Positions 1-35,842 of a stretch of 61,595 nucleotides of DNA are shown in pieces. Below the pieces are notes generated by a model. The model saw only the letters and a list, made by a program, of their open reading frames with translations. It was not told where the DNA came from and searched no databases. Within the stretch, counting starts at the first letter, position 1; every line of letters starts with the position of its first letter. The DNA is taken from IMG/VR virus record IMGVR_UViG_3300049749_000001, positions 1-61,595 of that record; one strand, 5' to 3'. Position numbers and translations under genes: made by a program. The DNA comes from a virus.

Positions 1-127
1 GCGGCACACTTACCGTCGACGTGGAAGAGCTCTACAAGAAGGTAAGGAAACAGGCCGACGAACAGGCGCCTCCCGCGCCAACGGAAGAACCGAACCTGAA
101 AGCCGCAAGGGACTTGCTGGCAGAGCG
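1..127. repeat. Terminal direct repeat, identical to 61469-61595 (circular-closure overlap)
   Basis: The first 127 nt (gcggcacacttaccgtcgacgtggaagag...ctggcagagcg) recur exactly as the last 127 nt. The coding frame is continuous across the join. Confidence 0.95.
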
Positions 128-3100
128 TAAGGAGGTTATCGGAAACAAGACGCGAGAGGGGTACCTGAAAGGCAAGGTGCGTGCACTGGCGAAGAAAACG
201 CCCATGTCGCACGAAAAGACGGTAGCCACCCTGGATATCATCGCTACCCGACTGGACATGGACGACCTGCAGTTCATGGAAGAGGCGCCGGCACCCAAGG
301 CTGAACCCGCCGACAAGGGAGATAGGGCGACTGCTTATTTCCGGGGCGACCTAGCGGAATACACCGGCAATACCGAGACGATACATGGCCGACTGTTCTA
401 TGAAGTGAAGGTATTGGAGGGACCGGACAAAGGAAATCTCAAGGTTATAACGGACCCTCCGGGCGGAGACAAGACACCGCCCAAGCAACAGGAGAAGAAA
501 CCTGTAACGCCTCAGATCACGCCGCCCAAGGCTGAACAGGAAGAAAAGTCCGACCTACCGTCATTCACCAAAGACGAAATCCTGTTTGACGAACACGGGC
601 AGCTTCACCGTGTCGAGGGAATGGACGAGCGGGGCAATCATATTCGGGTAACGCGCAATCCGGATCAGCTATCCGAGCGCGTGATTCTGATGCGTGAGGA
701 CAGGTTCAACCGCTTGCGCCAGGAGGATAAGGAATATCGGGAAAGCATCAAGCCACCGGAGAAGAAATCAAAGTTCCATGCTGGCGACGACAGCACCAAC
801 GACGCGATAAGGGAGCTGCGCGGTCTTTCCCACGATGAGGACCAACCCGGCGATGTGGCATTGGGCAACAAGAAGTATGTGAGTTTCGATGACGCCGTAC
901 GCGTAGCCCGCGAAGGAATCGACTCAGGAGAGGTCCAGGCTGTACCGTTCCAGGTAGTGAACCGGCTTGACCTGACATTCCGCGACGTGGACCGGGTAAT
1001 AGCAGCCGCGACCACTGCTGAAAAACCAGCCGAGAAGCCCGTATTTGCCAAGGGCGAACGTGTTTCATTCCGTACTACCATCGGACGCGAGCATCAAGGG
1101 AAGGTAGCGCGGGACACTTTCGGCGTCTCGCTGGTACTGGTTAAGGCAGATGGCGACAGCAAGCCGCTTTATGTGGATCAGGACAAGATAACGCGCCTCG
1201 ATGTACCGAAACGCAGACCCGAGGCAAACCCGGATGCCGAATGGTGGAAGGGATTGACCGGACAGGGCAGAAGGCTCGTGATGCAAGCGGCGGGCGTCGA
1301 GCTTCCCGATAGTGTGTTGTGGAACTTCATCAAGGCGGAGGTCAAGGCGAAGCTGCTGGCGCACAGGGGCGCAGCCGAAGAAAAGCCCGCGACCAAGCGC
1401 AAGGCGGAAATCGTGGACAACGGGGATACCAACCCGGGCGAGTTCATAGTCCGCGAGGGCGTGCAGAATCATGGGCGCTTCTCTATTGGGGCGAAGGGCA
1501 CACCTACCGGCGTCAAGTATTTCTTTGACAACAGCGAAACGCGCGGGCTGGTTGATGAAGCCATTGCGGAATTCATCAGGGAACGCGGCGCGACCAAGCC
1601 ACCGGAAGCCGACAAGCCGCCTACCCTGGCAGAGCTCAAGCAACTACTCCTGGATTCTCAGAACAGGCTGGACAACCAGATTGTTCAGGATGACAGGCTG
1701 ATTCAAAAGATTGCCGCACTCAAGAAAGCCGTAGCGGAAGGCGAAGCAGACGAGCGCAAGGCAAAAGCCAAGAAGGACTTGGATGATGCACTGGCCGACC
1801 TGGGCGATATCTTCGGCAAGGATATCCGCAGCAGCATACTTCCCGAACAGGAGCACAAGCTAATACCTGTGCTGGCGCGGGTAATGGATGCCGCCCTGCG
1901 CATGGGTTACTACAAGTTCAAGGATGCCTCCAGGTTCGTGCTCAAAACCATCCGGGCAAAACTAGGTGACGACGTTGCCGACCAGTTGACCATAGACCAC
2001 CTGCAGGGCGCCTATATCAGCATGGCCGGAAAGTACAAGGATGAGGGCGCGGACAGCAAGAAAGACGTGATCGGCGTGGAATCCCTTGACGAGATTGGGG
2101 ACGGTGCTACGATAGACGAAACGGACACCAAGGGAGCGCAAAATGAGAACCGTAATGAGCCGGGTACGGCCCCTGGCACAACAGGCGATGGACCACTGGA
2201 AGGAGCACCTCCCGAAGAAGTACCGGGAGTTGAAGGCGGCGGGGCAACTGGAAGCGGAAGCAACGAAGGCAGCGGAGCGGACGATGGACGAACAGGCGAC
2301 GCTGATGGAACAGGGGTACCCCCCGGAGGAAGCCTGGGCAGTGGTACGGGAGAAACACCTGTTCCAGCCGGAGGAACCGGGAACCTCGGAGGAAGCACCG
2401 GCGAGCCCGCAATTCCGGGAGGCGCAACAGGCGCAGATGATGCTCAACCGGATAATCCAGGAAGAGTAGAGGCCGGCGACTATCGCATAACCGAGTCAAC
2501 GCGTCTCGGTGAGGGCGGCGCCAAGGGTAAATACAAGGGCAACGTGGCCGCTATTCGCCTGATGCGCGAATTGCTCGATTCAGGGCGCAAGGCCACCCCG
2601 GAAGAACAGGATACGCTTGCCCGCTATGTTGGATGGGGCGGAATCCCGCAAGCATTCGATAAAGACAAAGCCGATTGGTCCAAAGAACACAAAGAGCTCA
2701 AGGCACTGCTTACGCCGGAAGAATGGGAAACGGCGGTAGAGTCTACTCAGTACGCGCACTACACTTCTGAAAACGTCATCCGCTCGATGTATGACGCCGC
2801 GGCGCACCTGGGCTTCGGCGGCGGTACCATCCTTGAGCCGGGATCCGGCGTAGGCAACTTCATAGGGCTGATGCCCGACTCCATCCGCAATAAAACCCGA
2901 TTCACGGGCGTAGAGCGCGAGAGCATCGCGGGCGGAATCGCCAAGCTGCTATACCCGAACCAGAACATCCAGCAAGCCGACTTCACCGCATTCAATGCGA
3001 CGGACGGCTATTTTGATTTCGTCATCGGCAATCCGCCCTTTTCCGATACCAAGCTGACGGACATATCCGGGCGCAAGCACCTATCGGGCTTGTCCATTCA

Positions 3101-6100
3101 CAACTACTTCTTTGCAAAAGCCGTCGACATGCTGCGCGACGGCGGAATTCTGATGCAGGTTGTGACGAGCTCCTTCATGGATGCCAAGCGCGACAAGGCA
3201 CGTAACTACATCGGGGAGCGTACTACCCTGCTAGGCGCTATCAGACTGCCCAACAGCGCATTTATGGGCAATGCCGGTACCGATGTTACAACCGATATCA
3301 TCTTCCTGCAGAAGCTACCGGAATCGCAGTGGAGTTCCAAGGTGGCGAAGGAGGACGCGCAACGCTGGCAGGGATTGGGCGAAGTCTTTGACCCGCTAGG
3401 CGGGGCAAAGATACCCATCAACCAGTATTTCGTGGATCACCCGGAAATGATGCTCGGCACCATGCAGCGCGTGGGCGGGCGTTATCACGAGGATATGCCG
3501 GGACTCGTGGCGCACCCTGGCAACGTCGGGAAAATGCTGGCCAAGGCGATATCGAAACTGCCCGCGAACGTGTACGTGGATATAGCCAAGGCCAATACCG
3601 GGGCAATGGAGGGCGCACTGGCGGAAGCCATGGCCAACCTGGACGTGGAAGTAAACGGCTATTTCGTGCGCAACGACAAGCTCTACCAGCGCGTGAACGA
3701 TATTGCCGGCGAACAGCGGGCAGTGTTGCTTACGCCCAATACGCAGTGGACCGAAAAACAACAGCTCGGGGAGAACAAGCACGCACGGCTCAAGAAAGTA
3801 TCGGAACTGCGCACCACCTTGCGCCAGTTGATCAATGCGGAGCGCAACGGCGACGAGAGCATGAAGGAGCTACGCGCCAAGCTGAACGAACAGTACGACG
3901 AGTTTGTGAAGGGCGGGCTGATACACGACAGGGGCAGCATCCAGCTATTCGGTGACGATCCCGATTTCCCCTTGCTCGCCTCCCTCGAGCGGAGCTACGA
4001 CGCGGGGATTTCAGAGGGCGCGGCCAAGAAACAGGGAATCAAGCCGGTCAAGTCATCCGCGAAGAAGGCCGACATTTTCACCAAGGCAGTTGTCAGCGTG
4101 CGTGAAGCCGTGGACAAGGCGGATACGCCCGTTGATGCCCTGATGATAGCCATAGCGGAGAAAGGCCGCATCGACGCGCCATTCATCGGGGAATTACTGG
4201 GACGAGACGGCGCGGAAGTGCTGGAAGAACTGACCAAGGGCGACGAGCCGGCACTGTTCAAGGATCCAGAGAGCGGCGGATACCTGCTGCGCGACGAGTA
4301 CCTTTCAGGGAACGTGCGCAAGAAGTACGCACTGGCGCAAGCGGCAGGCATGTACGACAACGCGGACGCCTTGAAGCGCGTGATACCAGAGGATATCCCC
4401 TCGCATGAAATCGTGGGGCGCCTGGGTGCGCCCTGGGTACCTTCGGAAGTCTACGAGGATTTCATTCGCCACATGCTAGGCGACCAGACCCAGGTGCAGG
4501 TGCGGTACGTGAAGGCACTAAGCAGCTTTGCGATTCAGGTGATGGAAGCCTCCGACGTGTCCAACTGGAACACCTACGGCGTGGCCGCATCGGGCGAGGA
4601 TAGACATGCCGGCAAATCCGCGGTGGAGATTATTTCGGCATTGCTCAATAACCGCCAGATAGCGGTACGCACAAGGCCGGACCGGGAAGGACGTACGGAG
4701 CTCGTGAAGGATGCAACGGACGAGGCCAACGACAAGGCGGCAATCCTGCGCGAGAACTTTACCGACTGGCTGATGCAGGATGCGGACCGTGCGGAGAAGG
4801 TGGGGCGCATCTACAACGACACGGTAAACAACTATGTAGAGCGCAAGTTCCTGGGCAACATCCTTAAATTCCCAGGCAAGGTACCCGATAGCATCATCAA
4901 GTTCCGGCGCCACCAGACCAATGCGATCGCTCGCATATTGCAGGAAGGGCGGGCACTGCTGGACCACGTTGTGGGCAGCGGCAAGACGTTCACCGTGATA
5001 GGCGCGGCACAGGAATTGAAGCGCACCGGGCTTGCACGCAAAAGCATGATCGTGGTACCGAACCACCTTGTAAAGCAGTGGGCGGCGGATTACTACAGGC
5101 TCTACCCGGGCGCGAACATCCTGGCAGCGACCAAGAAGGACTTTGAGCGGCAGAACCGCCGTCAATTCCTGGCACGCATCGCCACCGGCAATTGGGATGC
5201 AATCATCATCGCGCACTCGTCCTATGGATTCATCAAGCCGGATCCCAATTTCGAGGAACAGTTCAACTACGAAGTCATCCGGGAAATCATGGATGCAATC
5301 GCCGAGCTCAAGGGCGACGGCGCCACCGAACCGGATCAGGCCACCAAGCGCACCATCAAGCAACTGGCCAAGATGAAGGAGAAGCTGGAACAGCGCATCA
5401 AGTCACTGCGCGACAGGAACATGGATGCCCTGCTGGACCTGGGGCAGTTAGGCGTGGATCAGATTTTCGTGGACGAGGCGCACCTGTTCAAGAATCTGAT
5501 GTACACCACCAAGATGCAGAACGTGCGCGGGCTGAACAACCCGACAGGTTCGCAGCGTGCCTACGACATGATAATCAAGACTCGGCAGATCATGGCGGCG
5601 AACGGCCACCAGCGCGGCGTCGTGTTTGCAACCGGCACGCCGATATCGAACAGCATGGCGGAAATGTATCACATGCTGAGATACCTCTACCCTGACGGGC
5701 TGAGCGACATGGGGATGGAGACTTTCGACGCCTGGGCGAACTCCTTTGCGGAAGTGGAGCAGGTGTGGATGCAGTCGCTAACGGGCGCCGGATTCAAGGC
5801 AACAAACCGCATGAGCCGGTTCGTGAATGCCGCCGACCTGTTGAAAATGTACAACCAAGTTACCGATACCGTCACGCAGCGCGACGTTCAGGAAGCGTAC
5901 CGCGAGGAAAATGACGGTAAGGAATTTCCGTTACCGAAACTCAAGGACGGCAAGCGTACGCCGGTATCGCTCAAGAAAACGGCCGCACTGGCTGACTACA
6001 TGCTTGAGATTGCATCGCGTGCCCAAGCGGTAGAACAGCGCGGACGGCCACCGGAGGAGGGCGAAGATAACGTGCTCTCGATCATGACGGACGCCCGCAA

Positions 6101-9100
6101 GGCGGCGATGGATATGCGCCTCGTGGATTTAGACGCCACGGAGCGCGACCCGGAAGGGCGCATCGCCATGGCCGGCAAGGAAGTCATCGAGCGGTACCAC
6201 AAGTACCACGATGTACTCGGCACGCAATTGATTTTCAGCGACATGGGTACCCCCCTGAAACACGCCCGGAAGGAAATGGTGGAGTACGAGGCGCTACGCG
6301 CCACCATTGCGGCGGGAGCGGACCCGGATACCATTGCGCGCGCGGAATTGGGCGACGAAGCGGCAATGACCAAGATCGAGGAAGCGGAGAAAGCCCAGGA
6401 GACACTGGACGGCAAGGGGCAGGACTGGCTTGATGCGATCAAGGCCGCGATTCGCGGCTTTTCCATCTATGACGATATGCGGGCGTACCTGATGGAGAAC
6501 GGCGTACCGGAAAAAGAGATTGCCTTTATCCATGACTACAACACGGACGACCAGAAGGCGGCACTGTTCGCCGCGGTCAACGCCGGCAAAATCCGCATCC
6601 TGCTAGGGTCCACTGCCAAGATGGGCGCCGGTACCAATGTTCAGCAACGTCTCGTGGCGATTCACCATATCGACGTGCCCTGGAAACCCTCTGATATCGA
6701 ACAGCGCGAGGGGCGCATCATCCGCCAGGGCAATCTCTTTGCTACGCCACCAACCGAGGACGCGCCTAATCCGCTCTACAACCCGGATTTCGAGGTAGAG
6801 ATACTGGCCTACGCTACCCAGGACTCGCTGGACCTGTTCATGTGGCAGGTACAGGAAAAGAAGCTCGGCATGATCAACCAGCTACGCGAGGGCAAGGTAG
6901 GGCGCGAATTCGACAATGCGTTCGAGGAAATGCAAATGTCGGCCGGCGAAATGCAAGCCGCGGCAACGTCCAACCCGTACCTGATGGAAGAGATTGTACT
7001 TAAAGACAAGATCAAGAAATTGGAACGGCAACAGAAAAGCCATGTGGCGCAGGGCAACGACCTTATCACGCGGGAGAAGAAGGCACGCAAGGCGATAGCC
7101 GAACTGCCAGCGACCATCAAGGCGATGGAGAAGGTAGACAGCGAGGCGCGGGCTTACCACGCGGCGATGGAAGCGCGGGAAGTGCCCGCTACCATCGACG
7201 GCAAGCAATACACCAAGCGAGCCGCAGCGACCGCGTACATACGCGACATACTGGACGATCATCAAGAGCGGTACGAGAGGCAGGAAGCCGACAATTCCAT
7301 AAGGAAGCTGCAAGCCACCATAGACAATGCCCTGAACAAGACTGACAACGAGCCAAAGCTGGACGAAACGCTTTCCAAGAGCAAGCTCGCAAAGCCTATC
7401 AAGATCGACGGCAAGGATTACGTCAGTATCAGCGCGATTTCAGACCGCATCCGCATGATCTACGGTGACGCGGACCCCATTGCGTTCGAGCGCGGGGACC
7501 AGACCCTCTACACCCGCAGCGCCATCCGAGACGCCATCCGCGACGACTACGCCCGGGCGGTGGAAGAAGAAACCACCGTGCCGATGGGATCGTTCGGCAA
7601 TTTCGAGGTTTCGGTACTCGTCAAGAAAGCGCGGGACAAGAAAATGGAAATCGAGATTTACGCGCCGGCGCAACTCTCGGACGGTACCGACCTGGGATCA
7701 TATTATGTGGGCGAGTACCACGACAAGGTAGCGGCGCTACCCGATATCGACAAGTGGATCCGGGCGGCAAGCACGCACGCGCACGGCGTCGAGTGGTCCC
7801 TGAACAACTCACGCCGGGAACTGGAACAAGCGCACAAGACGATCAACGACCTTGGCAGGATGCCGGAGCGGCAGGAGTGGGCGGGCAAGGAAGAACTGGC
7901 GCAAGCCCGCGAGCGGTACCGCGAAGTGCTCAAGCTGATTGTCGCCCTGGCCAACCCGGCGCCGACAGTCAAGCCGGATGGAAAATACCATGTGATGCGG
8001 AAAGCGGAAGCGGCGCAAGCGATGGGCGGACAGCCCACGGATGAAGCAAAGGCCGACCCGCGGTTCTACGTCTGGACAGAAGGCATGATCCTGGTAGACG
8101 GTTCCAAAGACGGTTTCCCGACAGAGTTTGATGCGGGCGTATGGCTGGCCAGAAAGCAGGGCAAGCCCATTGCGGTACCGAGCCATACGGAAGCACGCCA
8201 CGGGCAAGGCATAGCGGGCATTACCAAGCTGCAGGACCGAACGCGAGCGGAAGAGCCGGCATTTTCCCGCCAACCCAAAAAAGCCACCCCCCCAGGTGGC
8301 TTTTCTGCTTCTGCGCTACCGAAAACGCACACCCAGGCAATCGTTGACGCCATCCGCGGAAAGTGGAAGAACGCGCCGGAGGTTGTCATCGTTGATGACA
8401 TGAACGATCCGGCCATACCGGGAGCCGTGCGCAAGGAGAACGAGCGCCAGCTATCCCAGGGCGCCAAGGGCGAGCCGGAGGGCTTCATTGCGGGCGGCAA
8501 GGTCTATGTAGTCGCATCGCAAATGCGAGCGCCTGGGGACGTTGTACGCGTGCTGCTGCATGAAAGCCTCGGACATTTCGGGTTGCGCGGGCTCTACGGC
8601 GCAGGACTGGACAAGATACTCCGGCAGATTGCCGCATTGCGGCGGAAAGAGGTGGAAGCCAAGGCACGCCAGTACGGCCTGGACATGAAGGTGGAGAAGG
8701 ACAAGCTCAGGGCGGCGGAGGAAGTGCTGGCGGAAATGGCACAGACCAACCCGCAAAGCGGCTTTGTCCAGCGTGCAATAGCGGCGATTCGGACATGGTT
8801 GCGCGAGAACATCGAATACTTCAAGGATATGAAGCTATCCGATGGCGAAATCATCAACAACTACCTGATACCCGCGCGGGAGTTCGTGCAACGGGGCGCA
8901 CCGCAAGGCGGGCAGGCAAGCGGCGTTACCGCATTCCAGCGCGTTTGGCACGGTACCCCGCATATCTGGCCACCGGAACCAGGTTTCGCGCATGGACGGC
9001 CACGGCTGGACATGATCGGAAGTGGCGAGGGTGCGGCGGCGTTTGGATGGGGATTCTATACCGCCGAATCCAGGCGCATAGGCGAGGAATATCACCGGAT

Positions 9101-12100
9101 ACTGTCATCGCGTAACCCCGTGATACTGAGGGCTGGCCTGAATGCCATCGTTCCATCGAACGAAATAGAAGAATACGCATTAGGCAGATTGCTGAGAGAG
9201 CTCAGATACGCGCAAGACGACACGGCGATAAACAGGGCGATCAAGAGGGTAATCCTGGATGCACGCAGCTCACGCAAAAAGGGGATGAATGCACCGGGCA
9301 AGCTGGCGCTTGAAGATGGAATCGCATCCTATGTCGAAAAACTATGGGATCAGCGCCTTACCCTGCAACGCGAAGGCGGGGCGCTATACCACCTGGACAT
9401 TCCAGATTCCGCATTGCCGTACCTGCTTGATTGGGACAAGCCGCTAGGCGAACAGCCACCCAAGGTCAAGGCCGCACTGAACATAGTACGGGCACGCCTT
9501 GAAAGCGTGGACTTGCTCGAGGACTACCTGGACGCAAAAAACGCCGATTGGGAAGAACTGACAGGCGCGGAGCTGTACCTGCAAATCCTGGACCGGGCAG
9601 CAACGGATGACGCTCTGCCCTACGGAGTTCCGGGCATTGAAGAAGCATTAACCTATAACAAGACCAAAAAGGCTGTATCGCTCTATCTCACATCGTTGGG
9701 CATAGTCGGAAACCGCTACCTTGACGGCGTTTCACGCAAGAAGGGGGAGGGCAACTACAACTACGTGATATGGGATCAGGAAGTACTCGACAAGATAGCC
9801 CTCCTGGAGCGCAACGGTACCGCCCTCGATGCGATGCGCGAAGCGGAGGAAGCGTTTTCCCGCAATTCCCGAAACGGGACAGAACGGGAAACACAGACCG
9901 ATACGCCAGAGTTCAGGAAGTGGTTCAAAGGTAGCAAAGTAACGGACGAGAACGGGAAGCCGTTGCCTATGGTTCACGTTTCCCCAAAGGGGAATATCGA
10001 AGTGTTTAAGCCGGGATCAGATGGCGGCGTTTGGTTTAGCCCTCTGCATGACACGACAGAGGCCGATATTGTTGCCAGCTACGGCAACGACTTTATAGAA
10101 AACCCAAACCCGGATGAATACCCTGACGTGGCAGTGGGCGCGACCTACTACCCTGTTTATCTGAAAGCGAACAACCCGGCAACGGGCAAAGACGCTGACG
10201 ACTTTTATAACGGAAAAGTTTCGGCCAAGGCATTGCAGAAAAAAGGGTATGACGGCGTTACCTGGGATGACGGCGTTACCGTTGTATTCAAACCCGAACA
10301 AATCAAATCAGCCATAGGCAATAACGGCGCATTCGACGCTACCAACCCGGATATCAACTTTTCCCGTTCGACGCCCAACCCGAAAGTAGAGGCGGCTAAA
10401 TCCTGGCTGGACGGCGTTACCGATTCCCTCATCTACAACTTCGTTGACCGCTTCAAGCCCCTGCGCGATATCCAGAAACGCGCCGGCGCGGTACCCGAAC
10501 GGCAGGACGCATCGCTTGCAGAAGAGCGGTATTCAGGAATGGTGCGGGCTCGTACCGATGATTTTCACAACGACCTCCGGGATCCACTGTTAAAAGCGAT
10601 ACACGATGGGAAGCTGGACTACGATCAGGTAGAGGAATACTTGCACGCATTGCACGCGCCTTCCCGCAATGCCCACATGAAGTCAATCAACCCGACTGCA
10701 GAAGAACTGCAAGCCCGCCTCGATGCGCTATCGAAGGAGCGCGACGAGCTCACAAGGAACAGGGATGTGAAGCGGTACATCAAGCTGCGCCGGGAGCAGC
10801 GCCAAGCCCAGGCCGATATCGACGAGGTTATCGCGGATGAATCGCTAGGCCGGATGATTGCGCAGGAAATGACAAAATTGCGCAAGGTGCCCGCGGTTAA
10901 AAGCTACGTGGATGCTACCGAGAAGCTGCGAGCACTGCGCGACGTGAAGCCGTTCGATGGTGACAATACCGCACTCTCCGGCATGAGCAACGCGGAAGCG
11001 AAGGCAGTCATCGAAAAAGCACGCAAGGCGGGCAAAATTCGGGCACTGGAGAAGGTTTCTGCCATCGTTGATACCATCACAGCCCAAACCCGGCAAATCT
11101 ACGTAGAGGCCGGTTTAGAGAAGGCGGAGACTATCGAGGGGTGGGAATCCCTTTATGAGCATTACGTCCCCCTGCATCGGGATGAAGTGGGCGGAAACAC
11201 CAATCCCCCCATCGGCCAGGGCTACAGCATACGCGGGCGTGAAAGCAAACGCGCCACCGGATCCACGAAAGAGGTAACGGACATACTGGCTCACATCGTT
11301 GCATCGCACGAGGCGGCAATCGTGCGGGCGGAAAAGACGAAGGTGGACCTTGCCCTGTATCGCTTCGCCATGTCGCACCCGGACCCGGATGTATGGACCC
11401 TGGACGCGGCACCCAAACTCAGGATGGTGGATCCGACCTCCGGCGTGGTTGCCGAACGCATCGACCCCCTCTATAAGAACCGGGCAAACGTCCTAACGCT
11501 GAAAATCGGCGGGGAAGAGCACACAATCACTTTCACCGAGAGCAACCCGGAAGCCATGCGGCTCGCCGTATCGCTTAAGAACCTGGGAATGCAGGAGCTC
11601 GGGCAAGTAACGCAGGTAATCGGAAAAGTAACCCGGTTTCTCGCAACCATGTCCACCTCTGCAAACCCGGTTTTCGTTGCCCGCAACTTCCTGCGCGACA
11701 TTCAAACCTCGTTCGTGAACCTGTCCGATACCGAACTGGCCGGGATGAAAAAGCAGGTTTTTGCCGATTTGCCATCCGCGATTAAAGGCATGTGGAACAT
11801 GTCACGCGGGGATCGTAAATCGAAGTGGGCAAAGTACGCGCATCAATTCCGCGCCGCCGGCGGGCAAACCGGATGGATGGAGCACTACGGCAGTATTGGC
11901 GAACGTGCCGATGGGTTGCGCAAGCAGCTTGCAGCGATGGACCCGACCAAGATCAACTTGGCCAAGCAGACCGCGCGCGCGTGGTGGGAGCTCATCGAGG
12001 ACGCGAACGGCGCCGTCGAAAATGGCGTGCGGCTTGCCGCTTTCGTCAACGCACGCAAGGCCGGTCTATCGGAAGGCAAGGCGGCGGCACTGGCGAAGAA

Positions 12101-20461: not shown

Positions 20462-21409
20462 TTAGCAGACCGGCGTTTCAGCTCCTTTTCGGCGGACCAT
20501 GACTAATCCCTGTCTGCTTACCTCAAAATCTTCCAGGAAACCGGAATCCTTCAAGGCTTGCAATGCCTTGTTAATCAGTTTCTTTGCATCGCGCAGCCGT
20601 TCCTTGTGTTTGGCTGTGCGTGCCGTCTCGTCCAGTTCCGCATCCTGGGGCGCCTCGATCATCAATCCCGCGCCACTAGCCAACGTTTCGATGCGCACAG
20701 GGTAAGGTTCGCGGTGTGATGCGTAGTAGGCGTGCAACCACGTTGCCATTCCTTCAGGAAGTGAAAGCCGGCGTTGCCATTCAACCCGGGTGTATTGGAA
20801 TTCCGAGAACAGGAACACGAGCTCGTCGTGCATCCGCACTGTCCATAGACCGCCATCGCCATCCTTGCGGCGCTTGGCGTGGTAGCCTGGAAGCATGGAC
20901 AGGGATAAATCCTCGTTCAGACGTTTACTGGCTATCTTCAAAGACGTGGCCTGTAGCCGTGTCATGCACTTGTCCAGGCGGTCATAGCTCTGTCCAGTGA
21001 CAGGCCACTCGATAGCCTTGCAAAAACTGAAAGGGGTAAAGTGAAACGGCGTGGCTAGTCCGTTTTCGCGGGCAAGGTGGATAAGTTGCAGCCATACGGT
21101 TTCATCATCCTGGCGGAGTTCTTCGCCGGTGTAGGTTATCTCGCCCTCCCCTATTACAGCGACAACGGCGCGTTTCAGGTCCGCCCGCGGCTGCTTTCGA
21201 TTCTTGACGGTGAACAATGCAGAACGAACAATCTCATTCGGGATCCCGCGCAGTCCTTCCGCCCAAAGGGTCAATTGCTTGTTGGATAGAAGCTCTGCCC
21301 GTTTGCCGTCCCGTGCCGTTTTCTTTACGCGTTCGCCAATTTCGCGGATGGAATCGGCGCTAGATTTCTTCGCGGGTTTGCCGCTGTCCTCTTCTGCTTT
21401 TTCAAGCAT
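20462..21409 (-). CDS. trfA: TrfA-family plasmid replication initiator
   Basis: The blocks GIPNEIVRSALFTVKNRKQPR, ITYTGEELRQDDETVWLQLIHLA, RLQATSL and SHREPYPVRIETL parallel the RK2 TrfA blocks as I recall them. The adjacent iterons support the call. Confidence 0.85.
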   Translation of the reverse strand: MLEKAEEDSGKPAKKSSADSIREIGERVKKTARDGKRAELLSNKQLTLWAEGLRGIPNEIVRSALFTVKNRKQPRADLKRAVVAVIGEGEITYTGEELRQDDETVWLQLIHLARENGLATPFHFTPFSFCKAIEWPVTGQSYDRLDKCMTRLQATSLKIASKRLNEDLSLSMLPGYHAKRRKDGDGGLWTVRMHDELVFLFSEFQYTRVEWQRRLSLPEGMATWLHAYYASHREPYPVRIETLASGAGLMIEAPQDAELDETARTAKHKERLRDAKKLINKALQALKDSGFLEDFEVSRQGLVMVRRKGAETPVC

Positions 21410-28995: not shown

Positions 28996-30060
28996 ATGGT
29001 TGGACCTATCGAAACATATCCCCTCAATCACTGCTACGCAGGTGATAGCCGCGTCACGCTCAAGCTCCTTGAGCCTTGCAGCGTGCAAGTTTGTGTCACG
29101 TCACCCCCCTATTACGGGTTGCGTTCGTATCTTCATGATACTCATCCTTATAAAAACCTTGAAATCGGTGGGGAAAAGACGCCGGATGAGTACGTCGCGG
29201 CGCTGGTCGAGGTTTTCCGGGAGGTTTGGCGCGTGTTGCGGGACGATGGCACGCTCTGGCTGAACCTGGGAGATAGTTACGCCGGCACAGGCAAGAGCGG
29301 CGGGGGAGCTCAGGGCAGGCGATGGGAAGAGTGCGGGATGGATACTACCGGAGCTCGAGGAGGCAAATGGATGCCGCCACCAGCAGGGCTCAAGCCGAAA
29401 GACTTGATCGGTATCCCCTGGCGCGTGGCATTTGCACTACAGGCGGATGGCTGGTACCTGCGGCAAGACATAATCTGGCACAAGCCCAATCCCATGCCGG
29501 AGAGTGTCACAGACCGATGCACCAAGGCACACGAGTACCTGTTCCTGTTGAGCAAATCCCCCAGGTACTACTTCGATAACGAGACGATAAAAGAAGCGTG
29601 CGCCCTGCAGGAATACAAGACGCCGGATGGATGGGATACCAGCAAGGGGGAGGGCGGGCACGGCCCATTTCACAAGAATGGCCGCGAGAAAGGCAAAACC
29701 GACAAGCAACGCGGGCATGGCCGCATCTATACCGGGTTTAACGAGCGATACGACGCCAAAGAAGCGGCGCAGCAGTTAACCGGCACTCGCAACAAACGGA
29801 GTGTTTGGACGATCCCAACGCGCCCGTATGCACAAGCCCACTTCGCAACATACCCCCCTGAACTCATCGAACCCTGCATTTTGGCCGGCACTCGCCCAGG
29901 CCAGATCGTACTTGACCCCTTTTTTGGATCCGGCACCACTGGCGAAGTAGCGCAACGCCTGGGGCGCCGGTGGATTGGCTGTGAACTTAACCCTGAGTAT
30001 GCCCTTTTACAAAATGAACGGACCCGCCAAGACGGGTTTGCCTTGGAGACGATGGAATGA
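28996..30060 (+). CDS. Stand-alone DNA methyltransferase (N4/N6 class, beta order)
   Basis: Motif IV VCVTSPPYYGLRSY comes before motif I LDPFFGSGTTGEVAQRLGRRWIGCELNPEY. Confidence 0.85.
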   Translation: MVGPIETYPLNHCYAGDSRVTLKLLEPCSVQVCVTSPPYYGLRSYLHDTHPYKNLEIGGEKTPDEYVAALVEVFREVWRVLRDDGTLWLNLGDSYAGTGKSGGGAQGRRWEECGMDTTGARGGKWMPPPAGLKPKDLIGIPWRVAFALQADGWYLRQDIIWHKPNPMPESVTDRCTKAHEYLFLLSKSPRYYFDNETIKEACALQEYKTPDGWDTSKGEGGHGPFHKNGREKGKTDKQRGHGRIYTGFNERYDAKEAAQQLTGTRNKRSVWTIPTRPYAQAHFATYPPELIEPCILAGTRPGQIVLDPFFGSGTTGEVAQRLGRRWIGCELNPEYALLQNERTRQDGFALETME

Positions 30061-32512: not shown

Positions 32513-32791
32513 GTGAGCCCTGCGCAACGGCACAAGAGCGTTGTTGCCCGCCTGGGATGCGTGATCTGCCGTGCGTTCTATGGCAAGCGGACCCCTCCCC
32601 AGGTGCACCATATCGCGGAAGGCTCCGGCCTGCGCAGTCCGTACATGACGGCGGGGCTCTGCCTTGAGCATCACCAGGGAGCGAGCGGGTTTCATACGTT
32701 GAAGGAGGAATTTCTGATTCAGTACAAATTGCCAACCGAGTATCACTTGCTGCTGCTGGTTAACCGTTTCCGCGCGGAAGATCGAATATGA
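32513..32791 (+). CDS. Ref/HNH-like (RecA-dependent nuclease family) small protein
   Basis: LGCVICRAFYGKRTPPQVHHI...GLCLEHHQGASGFH has the Cys pair plus HH...HH pattern of Ref-like HNH proteins. Confidence 0.45.
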   Translation: MSPAQRHKSVVARLGCVICRAFYGKRTPPQVHHIAEGSGLRSPYMTAGLCLEHHQGASGFHTLKEEFLIQYKLPTEYHLLLLVNRFRAEDRI

Positions 32792-33306
32792 TTTTTGAGG
32801 ATCCTGAACAGGCTTTGAAGTGGGCGTATTCCACGACGGAGCGCCCCATCATCAAAATGTCCAGCGTGAACAAGATGCGCGGGGCTGAGAACACGCGCCC
32901 GGGGGATGCCTTGACCCCTTACGATTTCATTGCAGAAGCCGCGATGATCAAGTCGCTGTGTGCACGGGTACTGCCTGGGTTGCACATGGCCTATGTCAAG
33001 GTCCGGTATGGCCGGGATGCGGACGGCCTGGACCCGCTACGGCGCTACCTTGCTGCAACCTTTGAGACCGGGATATATAGCAATCGCTGTATTGACCTCA
33101 TAATCAGGGACTATTGCGGGGACAAAATCACGCTGCGGGAAATGAAACGCGTGGGCAAATGCGGACTGCTGAAAGTAATGGCGCTGCGCACGCGCAGTTA
33201 CGACAACCTCGATGCGATACACAAGAGAACAATCGAGACTTTGTGGGAAGAAATGGGAGCGGTGCGGAAGTTCAGGGCGGCGTTTAACCGCCCTGAGTGT
33301 GGCTAG
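32788..33306 (+). CDS. Hypothetical protein (172 aa); candidate late-gene regulator by position only
   Basis: It is the last gene of the early rightward operon, directly before the late promoter/terminator region. No Q-type zinc finger was recognised. Confidence 0.5.
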   Translation: MIFEDPEQALKWAYSTTERPIIKMSSVNKMRGAENTRPGDALTPYDFIAEAAMIKSLCARVLPGLHMAYVKVRYGRDADGLDPLRRYLAATFETGIYSNRCIDLIIRDYCGDKITLREMKRVGKCGLLKVMALRTRSYDNLDAIHKRTIETLWEEMGAVRKFRAAFNRPECG

Positions 33307-33491
33307 GTGCGCGGTGCGCGTTCAGCGATGATGCGGGAGAGAAGATCGAGCGTTACAGGCTGCATGTTGCGGGCGCCGGCCTCCCAATTGCGAACGGTCC
33401 GCTCCGTGGTATGGAGTACCTGGGCGAATTGCCCCTGAGTCATTCCAAGGGCTTTGCGTGCTGCGCGGATTTCGGCGGGCGTCATGGTCAA
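33303..33491 (-). CDS. XRE-family HTH regulator (62 aa; Aca-like or antitoxin-like)
   Basis: IRAARKALGMTQGQFAQVLHTTERTVRNWEAGARNMQPVTLDLL is a classic XRE HTH. Confidence 0.8.
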   Translation of the reverse strand: MTMTPAEIRAARKALGMTQGQFAQVLHTTERTVRNWEAGARNMQPVTLDLLSRIIAERAPRT

Positions 33492-33751
33492 TCGAGGTAT
33501 GAAACATCATAACCGGCGTCGCGCAGGGCGTCGGCAACCTGCTTCGGCAACTCAAACACGCCGTCGTAGTCGCAGAGCGCCAGCTTGCGATAGCCGCTCA
33601 AGGAAGGAAGAACCTCAAACCAAAGCCCTCCGGCACATTCCTCTTCATCGTTGCGGCCGCAATCCTCGAAATAGCCGTATAGCGCGGTTTCGTCGATTTG
33701 CACATCGAAATCGTCCGTCTTGAGTTTCGTCGTGAAGTTGTATTTACCCAT
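33488..33751 (-). CDS. Small acidic hypothetical protein (87 aa)
   Basis: D/E-rich (DDFDVQIDETALYGYFEDCGRNDEEECAGG). It has a 4-nt overlap with the downstream HTH gene. Confidence 0.6.
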   Translation of the reverse strand: MGKYNFTTKLKTDDFDVQIDETALYGYFEDCGRNDEEECAGGLWFEVLPSLSGYRKLALCDYDGVFELPKQVADALRDAGYDVSYLD

Positions 33752-33769
33752 TCTTATTCTCCTGGGTTG

Positions 33770-33982
33770 TTATTTATATTGGTTGTCGTTGTTCGTCCGT
33801 ACCACTGTTGCATTGGGAGGGATCAGGTAAGAAGATCGTCCAACGAACAGGGCAAAGCGACGAGGGGATAGCTGAGTAACCGTCCACGTTGTATCGCTGC
33901 CGAGCTCCACGGCCATGCTTAGAGTTTGTTTTTTGTTGCCAATGAATGAGGCGGTTTCGGTGTAATCAAATTCTGATTTCAT
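33770..33982 (-). CDS. Small hypothetical protein (70 aa)
   Basis: First gene of the opposite-strand island. AGGAG RBS. Confidence 0.55.
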   Translation of the reverse strand: MKSEFDYTETASFIGNKKQTLSMAVELGSDTTWTVTQLSPRRFALFVGRSSYLIPPNATVVRTNNDNQYK

Positions 33983-34035
33983 GCCGTGCTCCTGGGTTTT
34001 TATGATTTTTCATAGCTGGCGGGATTGCCAACCTT

Positions 34036-34064
34036 CACGATACAGGAACAATGTTCCGCTTTCA
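34036..34064 (-). promoter_or_regulatory. Promoter of the minus-strand island with a palindromic operator in its spacer
   Basis: The minus strand reads TTGAAA-N17-TATCGT. The spacer holds the perfect 13-bp palindrome GGAACAATGTTCC (34044-56). Confidence 0.55.
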
Positions 34065-34090
34065 AGCGTAAATCAGATAGTTATTTGCGG

Positions 34091-34120: not shown

Positions 34121-34187
34121 TTTTTTCCTAGTGTCGCCTCTCCTGGCCGACATTCAGGTGGCCTCTCACGCCGCCTGATACTTAAAG

Positions 34188-34217
34188 CCCACCCCTCAAA
34201 GCGGTGGGTTTTTTTTT
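34188..34217 (+). terminator. Strong intrinsic terminator in the leader of the late operon
   Basis: CCCACC, a 9-nt loop, GGTGGG, then nine T residues. No plus-strand gene precedes it. Confidence 0.8.
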
Positions 34218-34255
34218 GGGGAAACGATGGGTACAGGAAACGGAAGGAGGTACTG

Positions 34256-34642
34256 ATGATTAGTCCGGCAATAGCTGCAATCGCAATCGCGGCGCTGGCC
34301 AGCCTCGCCTTTGCGGGCGGGTTTGCAGTCAGCGATTGGCGGTCAAGCGGGGAGATGGCGCGGCTCAACTTGGACAATAAGGTGCTCAGTGCATCGAACA
34401 CGCAATGCGCAACCGATATTACGAGCGTGCGGAAACGGGTTGAGGAAGTCGTGAACGAATCGGAACTGCTCAAGAGGTCCGGGGTTCAGGCAATGGAAAC
34501 CGCACAACCCCAGGCTACGAAACATACCCTCGCCGCTATCACCATCAAGGCGGCGCCCATTGTCGCCGAGGACATGCAGTGCGAAGCAATCGCGCGGGAA
34601 CAGATCGAGTACGTGAACTGGCGGAGGGCTAATGGCAGTTGA
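34256..34642 (+). CDS. i-spanin-like protein (N-terminal TM plus coiled coil, 128 aa)
   Basis: MISPAIAAIAIAALASLAFAGGFAV followed by a charged helical domain. GGAAGGAGG RBS. The ORF-track start at 34025 was rejected. Confidence 0.55.
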   Translation: MISPAIAAIAIAALASLAFAGGFAVSDWRSSGEMARLNLDNKVLSASNTQCATDITSVRKRVEEVVNESELLKRSGVQAMETAQPQATKHTLAAITIKAAPIVAEDMQCEAIAREQIEYVNWRRANGS

Positions 34643-34899: not shown

Positions 34900-35190
34900 A
34901 TGAGTAACGGGGGCTGGCTAGTCCTTCTCATCCTGCTTTTCTTGCTCGTGAATTTGGGCGGATGCGCAAGTGATCCAATCATTCAGACACAGGTTATAGA
35001 CCGTCCCGTGGCGGTCCCCTGCAAGGTAGAGACGCCCGCGGAATGCAAGACAGCCTATTCGGTAGACCGGGTATCTCCAAAGGATGACGCACTGACAATC
35101 AACCGGGCTTTGCGAGCGGAGATAGAGGAACGGACCGCGTGCGAAATCAAGCTGCGAGCGGCGATGAAAGGATGCAACAGGGAAAGGTGA
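34900..35190 (+). CDS. Lipoprotein, o-spanin-like (96 aa; start uncertain, ORF open from 34729)
   Basis: Signal and lipobox in WLVLLILLFLLVNLGGC/ASDP. Pro- and Cys-containing mature part with a C-terminal ...ACEIKLRAAMKGC. Confidence 0.5.
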   Translation: MSNGGWLVLLILLFLLVNLGGCASDPIIQTQVIDRPVAVPCKVETPAECKTAYSVDRVSPKDDALTINRALRAEIEERTACEIKLRAAMKGCNRER

Positions 35191-35194
35191 AGTA

Positions 35195-35842
35195 ATGGCA
35201 CGGCAAAAGAAAGACGTGGATTGGGTCAAGCTGGAACAGGATTACGGCGCAGGTGTGAAGTCAATGCGCATCCTGGAGAGCGAGTACGGCATTTCCAAGG
35301 CACGCATCGGGCAGGTTGCGGAAGAGAACGGCTGGACCCGCGACAGGTCCGCGAGGGTCAAGGCACGCACCCAGGCCAAACTAGACAGATCGTTACTGGA
35401 CACCAAACTGGACACCGAAAAGCATGTTTCGGAAATGGTGCTTATCGAGGCTGCTGCGGAGAACCAGAAGGATGTGATTCTGGCGCACAGGCAAGTGATA
35501 AACCGCGTGCGATCGGTGGCACTGGCGCTGCTGGATCGGTTATCCGCTTTGAACGTATACGAGTTCGATCATGAAGAGTTGGGCGAACTGCTGCGCAACC
35601 CGGACGAGAAAAACAGGGACCGGCTGAACGATATCTACCGGCGCGTGATTGAGTTGCCTGAACAAGTGGACGCAATCAAGAAGCTGGCCGAGACAATCAA
35701 GCTCCTTATCAGCCTGGAACGCGAAGCATTCGGTATCGAGGGCAAGGGCGCAGTCGATGACATTACCGATGCGGCGACCAATATCACGGTTTCGTTCATC
35801 ACGGCTCAACCACGGCCATTAATCCACCAACAGACTCACTAG
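35195..35842 (+). CDS. terS: Terminase small subunit
   Basis: N-terminal HTH-like KSMRILESEYGISKARIGQVAEENGWTRD. It lies upstream of terL. Confidence 0.65.
   Translation: MARQKKDVDWVKLEQDYGAGVKSMRILESEYGISKARIGQVAEENGWTRDRSARVKARTQAKLDRSLLDTKLDTEKHVSEMVLIEAAAENQKDVILAHRQVINRVRSVALALLDRLSALNVYEFDHEELGELLRNPDEKNRDRLNDIYRRVIELPEQVDAIKKLAETIKLLISLEREAFGIEGKGAVDDITDAATNITVSFITAQPRPLIHQQTH

Follow-up and report, generated by a model that had tools for sequence, protein, structure and literature searches.

An antisense phage cassette with a predicted Aca10-like autorepressor and candidate anti-defence cargo

The viral contig IMGVR_UViG_3300049749_000001 of IMG/VR, analysed here over its whole length of 61,595 nucleotides (hereafter the window), carries a three-gene cassette on the minus strand, in which two small cargo genes, ORF70 and ORF87 (open reading frames of 70 and 87 amino acids, aa), are followed by a gene for a helix-turn-helix (HTH) protein of the XRE type, HTH62. 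With moderate confidence, we read the cassette as a self-contained accessory unit, or 'moron', that lies antisense between early and late genes, belongs to a temperate phage or phage-plasmid, is governed by Aca10-like self-repression and encodes small proteins that inhibit host immunity or some other host function, that is, anti-defence or host take-over factors. The regulatory half of this reading, an Aca10-like autorepressor with its operator, is well supported by sequence comparison. That the cargo acts against host immunity is suggested by the regulator family, by the small, soluble and mostly acidic nature of the cargo, by its turnover between sister phages and by neighbourhoods containing ArdC or ArdA. 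All the parts listed in a preliminary description of the locus lie where it had placed them, on the minus strand (Table 1). The cassette is also, as it had said, wedged between the early-right and late operons, with a 172-aa gene on one side and the spanin and TerS genes on the other.

HTH62 matches HTH_3 with an E-value (E) of 4e-9 as a single domain that covers the protein from end to end. Its best match in the PDB is Aca10 (7XI5; E 1.4e-8, 47% identity over 49 residues), followed by HigA-2 (1.6e-7) and Aca3 (4.8e-5). Specifically, Aca10 residue R44, which is critical for DNA binding (Lee et al. 2022, PMC9410881), aligns with HTH62 R41. G-x-R-x-M-x-P, a motif that contains the DNA-binding Arg, does not vary across a three-way alignment, and the two-residue insertion of HigA-2 is absent. 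A profile of the Aca10 family, built from 12 Aca10-like proteins of viral contigs, gives its core members 109-125 bits, the HTH protein occupying the same slot in a sister phage (L001) 79 bits and HTH62 49 bits, while the antitoxin-type HTHs (HigA-2, MqsA-like and Aca3 fragments) receive 14-24 bits. The L001 protein is 54-62% identical to members of the Aca10 family and 44% identical to HTH62, and HTH62 is tied to the family through this positional counterpart, the clearer member. From these comparisons, HTH62 is best described as a peripheral or sister relative of Aca10 and not as a core member. A search for HTH62 homologues returned the query alone at the threshold used.

The HTH62 gene abuts ORF87, has no ribosome-binding site of its own and shares the third-codon-position G+C content (GC3) of the phage. 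The 4-nt overlap with ORF87 that had been described earlier exists from the TTG start; from the ATG at position 33485, which is the start in the public gene call, the protein has 60 aa and the overlap gives way to a 2-nt gap. With either start codon, the gene arrangement suggests that HTH62 is translationally coupled to ORF87 and poorly translated.

The cassette is preceded by a putative sigma-70-type promoter that agrees with the consensus at 9 of 12 positions, and the TTGAAA-N17-TATCGT element with a 13-bp palindrome in its spacer, noted in the preliminary description, is borne out as a 6-1-6 repeat at 34045-34057. A promoter scan taken by itself is not significant, with 3 sites against 1.6 expected in 2.8 kb, and the promoter function of TTGAAA-17-TATCGT is accordingly a prediction from its sequence. 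The palindrome, GGAACAATGTTCC, is the predicted operator of HTH62. The 61.6 kb hold 16 repeats of this kind (inverted, with a 1-nt centre and arms of 6 nt or more), and we estimate the chance of one falling inside a given promoter at about 0.005. No second copy of the operator is present in the 61.6-kb window, even when 2 mismatches are allowed. A collection-wide scan for the operator together with a -10 pattern yields more than 100 chance matches, and among the loci examined the HTH gene accompanies the pattern in the window's own phage only.

This arrangement can be compared directly with Aca10-type sites. The operator of Aca10 itself, verified by electrophoretic mobility shift assay, is a 10-1-10 palindrome, AATACGCTCA-T-TGAGCGTATT, situated between the -35 and -10 hexamers of the promoter TTGCAA-N16-TATTCT (PMC9410881). 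Nine Aca10-like operons on viral contigs carry the palindrome CGCTCA-N-TGAGCG, or CACTCA-N-TGAGTG in one of them, at 110-1190 bp upstream of the HTH gene. In the eight operons read and in the promoter of Aca10 itself, the palindrome centre lies 13-16 nt after the start of the -35 hexamer; the corresponding position is +14 in the window and +15 in L001, both with a 1-nt centre and an inner CA-N-TG. The L001 operator reads ATGAACA-G-TGTTCAT and its promoter, TTGCAC-18-TACACT, aligns with that of the window. The core GAACA-N-TGTTC occurs at the matching promoter position in L001-L003. An HTH62 dimer is predicted to occlude the promoter at the palindrome because operator geometry, position and core conservation match Aca10-type sites.

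Comparison with L001 also separates what is kept in the cassette from what is replaced. When the two intergenic regions are aligned, the promoter hexamers match up, as do the core GAACA-N-TGTTC and a plus-strand terminator, and similarity stops just past the -10 hexamer, where the cargo differs. The L001 slot holds genes of 75, 68, 157, 135, 87, 176 and 62 aa, among which ORF87 alone is shared with the window. The gene that abuts the HTH gene there encodes the 176-aa protein, unlike in the window, where it is ORF87, and all L001 cargo proteins of the slot are acidic, with none of known function. These sequences point to a stable frame of promoter, operator and HTH gene enclosing exchangeable cargo. 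The earlier suggestion of an operon architecture ending in an HTH autorepressor thus gains support, since Aca10 is the closest solved relative, the L001 counterpart reaches 79 bits and the operator core is retained while the cargo differs. A megablast search of the region against GenBank phages found nothing, and since the tblastn searches described below are likewise empty, the cassette has no annotated relative to lean on.

ORF87 is acidic, as had been stated, with an isoelectric point (pI) of 4.1, and its whole family is uniformly acidic. Its assignment as a protein of no recognisable family needs qualification: neither ORF87 nor ORF70 matches a family in Pfam, PHROGs, NCBIfam or PADLOC, but ORF87 is no orphan and belongs to a large, unnamed phage family. 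About 110 homologues were found, none of them annotated, and the family has 178 confirmed matches in IMG/VR, compared with 11 among 185,579 species genomes; it is almost purely phage-borne. The motifs GGLWF and L-x-DYDGV are invariant in an alignment across distant phages. The ratio of nonsynonymous to synonymous substitution rates (dN/dS) between the window and L001 is 0.32. None of 74 family members tested against Pfam reaches a curated cut-off, tblastn of ORF87 against GenBank phages and PLSDB plasmids returns nothing, and the N-terminal extensions of longer homologues provide no domain clue. No publication on the ORF87 motifs turned up in a literature search. The AlphaFold2 (AF2) model of ORF87, with a mean predicted local distance difference test score (pLDDT) of 87, comprises five strands and a C-terminal helix. 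Foldseek finds no relative of this model in the PDB and one match in BFVD, an uncharacterised family member from an uncultured phage with 42% identity to ORF87. Profiles of the ORF87 and ORF70 families searched against PDB sequences give noise only.

About 55 of 80 loci (L013-L091, IMG/VR) share one syntenic ORF87 neighbourhood, the largest clade, in which the genes encode a dATP/dGTP diphosphohydrolase-like protein, a dCMP deaminase, a nucleoside 2-deoxyribosyltransferase, a MazG-like protein, DUF6899, a family A DNA polymerase (PolA) and a ligase. By its gene content, this neighbourhood appears to be a nucleotide-pool remodelling module of uncultured phages. Single relatives lie elsewhere, one of them 4 kb from ArdA and another beside an integrase. 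Among about 90 further loci, no HTH62-like gene stands beside an ORF87 homologue outside this phage and its sister.

ORF70 is soluble and basic (pI 9.2), and its GC3 (0.51, where the phage has about 0.69) suggests that it was acquired from elsewhere. Its dN/dS values of 0.15-0.19, measured against its nearest homologues in L007 and L008, indicate purifying selection, as does the value for ORF87, and the two are for this reason regarded as real genes. ORF70 has about ten homologues, three of them close and about seven small and distant, the latter added by an exhaustive HMMER search; three further matches of that search, to giant proteins, were judged compositional artefacts with incoherent Pfam output and set aside. 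All three close homologues reside in ArdC-led runs of small genes, long and confined to one strand. DUF2958, a ParE toxin-antitoxin pair, a resolvase and a primase also occur in these arrays, which resemble conjugative or mobilisable elements. None of the ORF70 homologues has an HTH62-like neighbour. The AF2 model of ORF70 (pLDDT 85) has no fold match in the PDB by Foldseek, and tblastn of ORF70 against plasmids returns nothing. Both cargo proteins lack hydrophobic segments and enzyme domains. Most AcrIC proteins (anti-CRISPR, Acr, proteins) are acidic (PMC7913775).

The leader and the hairpins around the cassette complete its layout. A near-identical sequence, AACCCAGGAG, precedes the start codons of both cargo genes, at 33985-33995 for ORF70 and 33754-33764 for ORF87 on the minus strand. 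The 5' leader folds into two small hairpins only, no better than shuffled sequences (z-score, z, -1.3). The hairpin just past the HTH62 stop codon has a folding energy of -20 kcal/mol (z -4.2), and L001 has a different hairpin at the matching place after its HTH gene (z -3.4). On the plus strand, the strong T9 hairpin was missed by a simple terminator scan; its position and most of its sequence are kept in L001. It would stop early-right transcripts that had crossed the cassette antisense, in which case the late genes would need antitermination or a promoter of their own. The plus strand also has a weak promoter-like site at 34025-34052, TTGCCA-16-AACAAT, whose -10 falls within the operator palindrome; together with the T9 terminator this site would yield a short RNA of about 160 nt resembling that of lambda PR'/tR'. 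Such a lambda-like arrangement over the operator is not adopted, as the site is weak and, read by eye, not conserved in L001; its absence there makes it probably a chance occurrence.

Together, these elements suggest a simple regulatory course. A sigma-70 promoter recognised by the host would fire once the DNA enters the cell and drive expression of the small soluble ORF70 and ORF87, which from their sites should be well translated, along with the poorly translated, coupled HTH62. As Aca10 homology and operator conservation suggest, a dimer of HTH62 would then bind GGAACA-N-TGTTCC between the -35 and -10 hexamers and shut its own promoter. Expression would consist of a burst followed by a low steady level. 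More speculatively, opposing early-right transcription that enters the cassette could add antisense interference.

Several observations weigh against this account. On the regulatory side, the operator half-site is unlike that of Aca10 (GGAACA versus AATACGCTCA), and HTH62 is peripheral to the family, with 49 bits versus at least 109 for the core; in a plain search it scores almost equally on HigA-2 (1.6e-7 versus 1.4e-8). Core Aca10 operons (L109, L117 and L120) share the 5' untranslated region (5'UTR) sequence CCGCC(G/C)GGGCGGAACC..UUCCUGAU.GGAG, which is missing from the window leader. A conserved structured 5'UTR has been predicted for aca10 operons, and binding of Aca10 to that RNA could not be confirmed (PMC13551039). 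On the cargo side, the ORF87 clade of about 55 contigs sits amid nucleotide-metabolism and replication genes without an adjoining HTH gene, and conservation as strong and broad as that of ORF87 is unusual for an anti-CRISPR. Operons regulated by anti-CRISPR-associated (Aca) proteins also carry restriction-modification (R-M) systems, helicases and other non-Acr genes (PMC13551039). Finally, neither ORF70 nor ORF87 shows likeness to a known Acr, anti-restriction or other anti-defence protein in Pfam, PHROGs, NCBIfam, PADLOC, PDB profiles or folds. The earlier proposal of an acr-aca-like operon is partly upheld: its architecture holds and gains backing from regulator homology, whereas likeness of the cargo to known Acr or anti-defence proteins is found neither by sequence nor by predicted fold.

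Four separate operons (L109 2181-2627, L117 3058-3489, L120 2320-2808 and L124 3055-3486) have, as the gene immediately preceding the Aca10-like one, a gene for a conserved protein of 143-162 aa. Judged by its position in L109 it is AcrIC6, with the N-terminus ..VPAELKGRW.RASRAAGMRLTD.., and AcrIC6 is reported to be a weak anti-CRISPR (PMC7913775). The constant pairing of an AcrIC6-like protein with Aca10 might indicate a regulatory role.

Four other explanations of the cassette were weighed. An ordinary lysogenic-conversion or competition moron would be expressed at a steady, self-limited level and benefit its carrier, for instance by excluding phages or plasmids or by modulating host physiology, with no disarming at entry. 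This is rather unlikely, although the anatomy is classic for such a unit, with its own promoter, terminator-like hairpin, opposite strand, foreign composition of ORF70 and absence from related lineages; negative autoregulation leading to constant low expression fits a resident element, and the reported company of Aca-type regulators with R-M systems, helicases and other non-Acr genes (PMC13551039) agrees with it. The cargo speaks otherwise, in that both proteins are small and soluble without a hydrophobic segment or enzyme domain, whereas exclusion proteins are mostly membrane proteins and defence enzymes are larger. Neither has a PADLOC match, and ORF87 is common in lytic-looking contigs with replication genes of their own, where lysogenic conversion would make no sense. 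A distinctly unlikely explanation, which overlaps the favoured accessory-unit reading save for immunity, is that ORF87 and perhaps ORF70 inhibit or redirect a conserved host protein, such as a nuclease, polymerase or nucleotide-pool enzyme, with the HTH protein limiting harmful excess. The invariant ORF87 motifs across distant phages, the roughly 55 contigs that place it amid nucleotide-metabolism, PolA and ligase genes and the uniform acidity of the family all agree with a factor of host take-over or DNA metabolism. In the window and L001, however, ORF87 has moved to a separately regulated slot away from replication genes, it has no detectable enzymatic fold or ligand-binding family, and ORF70 relatives lie outside replication modules.

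An atypical toxin-antitoxin pair with the HTH protein as antitoxin had been offered as an alternative from the outset. Read as a reversed type II system of the HigBA or MqsRA type, with ORF87 or ORF70 as toxin and the HTH protein as antitoxin and autorepressor, it is now disfavoured to the point of being very improbable. The resemblance behind it is real: HTH62 is similar to HigA-2 (1.6e-7) and to the MqsA C-terminal domain (TIGR03830, 9e-9, under its cut-off), and one viral HTH relative (L105) is a 149-aa MqsA-like protein behind a 95-aa gene. HigA-2 and MqsA belong to toxin-first operons that are repressed via promoter palindromes. HTH62, however, is a DNA-binding domain only (60-62 aa, against 65 for Aca10) and lacks a toxin-neutralising extension; the HigA-2 match does not begin until residue 38 of 103, and the MqsA-family profile is matched only at positions 65-116 of 127. 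Nor does the pair persist, as about 90 other ORF87 loci and the ORF70 loci have no HTH62-like neighbour and the L001 HTH gene adjoins the different 176-aa gene. Pfam, NCBIfam and PADLOC yield no toxin family, and ORF87 has a strongly acidic composition. More improbable still is a developmental role in which the HTH protein times the late and lysis genes from the shared intergenic region, the two ORFs being incidental passengers. One 280-bp intergenic region does hold the cassette promoter, the conserved plus-strand terminator and the beginning of the late operon, and the -10 of the weak plus-strand site TTGCCA-16-AACAAT lies in the operator. That site is not conserved in L001, and a late-gene timing role is unlikely because no second operator exists in the 61.6 kb, even at 2 mismatches, and related phages run their late genes without such an HTH protein.

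The cassette belongs to an element that looks, from its sequence, like a phage-plasmid and not an integrating prophage. Positions 1-127 and 61469-61595 are identical, and this 127-bp terminal overlap indicates a complete circular genome of about 61.5 kb; the circular contig, a TrfA-type replication initiator and a serine resolvase are the grounds for the phage-plasmid reading. No integrase was found among the window ORFs scanned, and no tRNA gene. A giant frame of more than 4,400 aa runs on the plus strand from about 60700 to 61595 and continues into 21-13238, spanning the contig junction. It encodes a 'polyvalent protein' with Eco57I-type methylase, ResIII/SNF2 helicase, ADP-ribosyltransferase (ART-PolyVal) and LPD38 domains. 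According to published proposals, polyvalent-type proteins take part in conflicts of mobile elements with their hosts.

Table 1. Features of the cassette, its flanks and the wider genome (window coordinates)
Feature	Coordinates	Strand	Details
Sigma-70-type cassette promoter (predicted)	34037-34065	-	-35 TTGAAA 34065-34060; 17-nt spacer; -10 TATCGT 34042-34037
Predicted operator GGAACA-A-TGTTCC	34045-34057	both	6-1-6 inverted repeat, wholly in promoter spacer
5' leader, ~50 nt	33983-34030	-	AGGAG ribosome-binding site
ORF70, 70 aa, cargo gene 1	33770-33982	-	AGGAG 6 nt before ATG
ORF87, 87 aa, cargo gene 2	33488-33751	-	AGGAG 7 nt before ATG
HTH62, XRE-type HTH	33303-33491	-	TTG start 33491 (62 aa) or ATG 33485 (60 aa)
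GC-rich hairpin just past HTH stop	33272-33296	-	Terminator-like, weak U tail; inside 3' end of 172-aa gene
Intrinsic-terminator-like hairpin with T9 run	34184-34218	+	Between cassette promoter and late genes
172-aa gene	32788-33306	+	Last of early-right operon; convergent with HTH gene
i-spanin-like gene	34256-34642	+	Start of late operon; N-terminal hydrophobic segment, judged by eye
o-spanin-like lipoprotein gene	~34900-35190	+	LGGC lipobox, judged by eye
DNA methyltransferase	28996-30060	+	phrog_67, E 2e-76; first large gene of early-right operon
TrfA-type plasmid replication initiator	20462-21409	-	
Serine resolvase	15669-16301	-	

Upstream of the cassette, the plus strand carries a repressor/Cro-like pair, the DNA methyltransferase, a primosomal protein, a nuclease-like and a RecA-dependent-nuclease-like gene and the 172-aa gene. 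The methyltransferase may give self-protection from restriction. The 172-aa gene has no family in Pfam, PHROGs or NCBIfam; its position alone suggests a role as a late regulator, perhaps a Q-type antiterminator. Its stop codon and that of the HTH gene share one CTAG (33303-33306), and the same 4-nt stop overlap recurs in L001 (5049-5052). Downstream of the cassette follow, on the plus strand, the T9 hairpin, the i-spanin-like and o-spanin-like genes, TerS, TerL, portal and major head protein genes. TerS, which begins at 35195 directly after the spanins, matches phrog_1206 at 1.7e-49, and homologues of the flanking spanin and TerS genes are found in L001 and L312. In five other lineages with a homologue of the 172-aa gene, same-strand genes come next and there is no antisense cassette: spanins and TerS follow it in L312, and HNH and terminase genes in L313. 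The existence of such relatives without the cassette (L312-L315) identifies it as an insertion, that is, a moron.

Aca-type repressors are the most productive signposts to new inhibitors of bacterial immunity, and the present locus offers an Aca10-like regulator that has diverged and whose predicted operator, GAACA-N-TGTTC, is distinct. The comparison of the two phages nominates eight uncharacterised proteins: ORF70 and ORF87 here, and in L001 ORF87 again together with six others, namely five cargo proteins and its own HTH protein. ORF87 is the most attractive candidate, being common in uncultured phages, confidently modelled without a known relative and free of annotation. A further-reaching interpretation, possible though on balance doubtful, makes the ORF87 family (about 76-87 aa, acidic, with GGLWF and L-x-DYDGV(FELPK) motifs) a new and widespread class of counter-defence or host take-over proteins with an unsolved fold and a conserved host target. 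ORF70 would then add another new inhibitor, one that passes between phages and the ArdC-led parts of conjugative elements, and the pair of GAACA-N-TGTTC and Aca10-like protein would make up a new Aca sub-family, usable as a marker to find more such genes. Should the cargo not act against immunity, the cassette would provide a clean example of a self-limiting accessory operon and a caution against taking an 'Aca-like HTH' as proof of anti-defence function.

Among known systems, HigBA-2 and MqsRA share with the cassette the HTH sub-type (..RT..NWE.G..), the placement of the HTH gene downstream of a small gene and a promoter palindrome; unlike them, the window has no neutralising domain, conserved partner gene or toxin family match. 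Phage morons are independent transcription units between conserved phage genes (Hendrix and colleagues), and classic examples are usually single genes without a dedicated repressor, thought to be expressed from the prophage. The cassette is such a unit, with its own predicted promoter, a terminator-like hairpin, a position between genes that are adjacent in relatives and, in ORF70, an atypical base composition. It differs from the classic ones in being multi-gene and in having a dedicated repressor.

The Aca operons (Aca1-Aca14; Feussner et al. 2026, PMC13551039; AcaFinder, PMC9765179) resemble the cassette as one-strand operons of short genes with the HTH gene last, an inverted repeat overlapping the promoter and variable, mostly unannotated cargo. 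AcaFinder looks for genes on one strand with gaps under 250 bp, proteins under 200 aa, an HTH and a known Acr homologue (PMC9765179). The window shows an 18-nt gap followed by the 4-nt overlap (a 2-nt gap from the ATG) and proteins of 70, 87 and 62 aa, in agreement with the structural rules. Unlike these operons, it contains no known Acr homologue by PDB profiles, folds, Pfam, PHROG or NCBIfam, of the kind on which guilt-by-association calls rest, and, by the operator scan, no second regulated operon.

The closest parallel is the acrIC7-acrIC6-aca10 operon of a Pseudomonas citronellolis prophage, in which Aca10 is the repressor (WP_074980464 / PDB 7XI5; León et al. 2021, PMC7913775; Lee et al. 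2022, PMC9410881). Binding and anti-CRISPR activity have been shown for that operon, whereas the window locus is read from sequence alone. The two differ in half-site (GGAACA here, AATACGCTCA in Aca10) and arm length (6 versus 10 nt), and the window has neither an AcrIC6 or AcrIC7 homologue nor the core 5'UTR sequence, with HTH62 far under the core scores. They agree in the terminal stand-alone HTH protein of about 60-65 aa, 47% identical over 49 residues with the DNA-binding Arg kept; in the strong promoter of the sigma-70 type, whose -35 and -10 flank an odd palindrome (1-nt centre, inner CA-N-TG); and in the small acidic cargo genes upstream on the same strand. Both also lie antisense beside spanin genes of the lysis cluster: in the native P. 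citronellolis prophage (L109, 1488-3372), 25 bp separate the end of an o-spanin-like lipoprotein gene from the Aca10 operator, and aca10 faces a convergent i-spanin-like gene.

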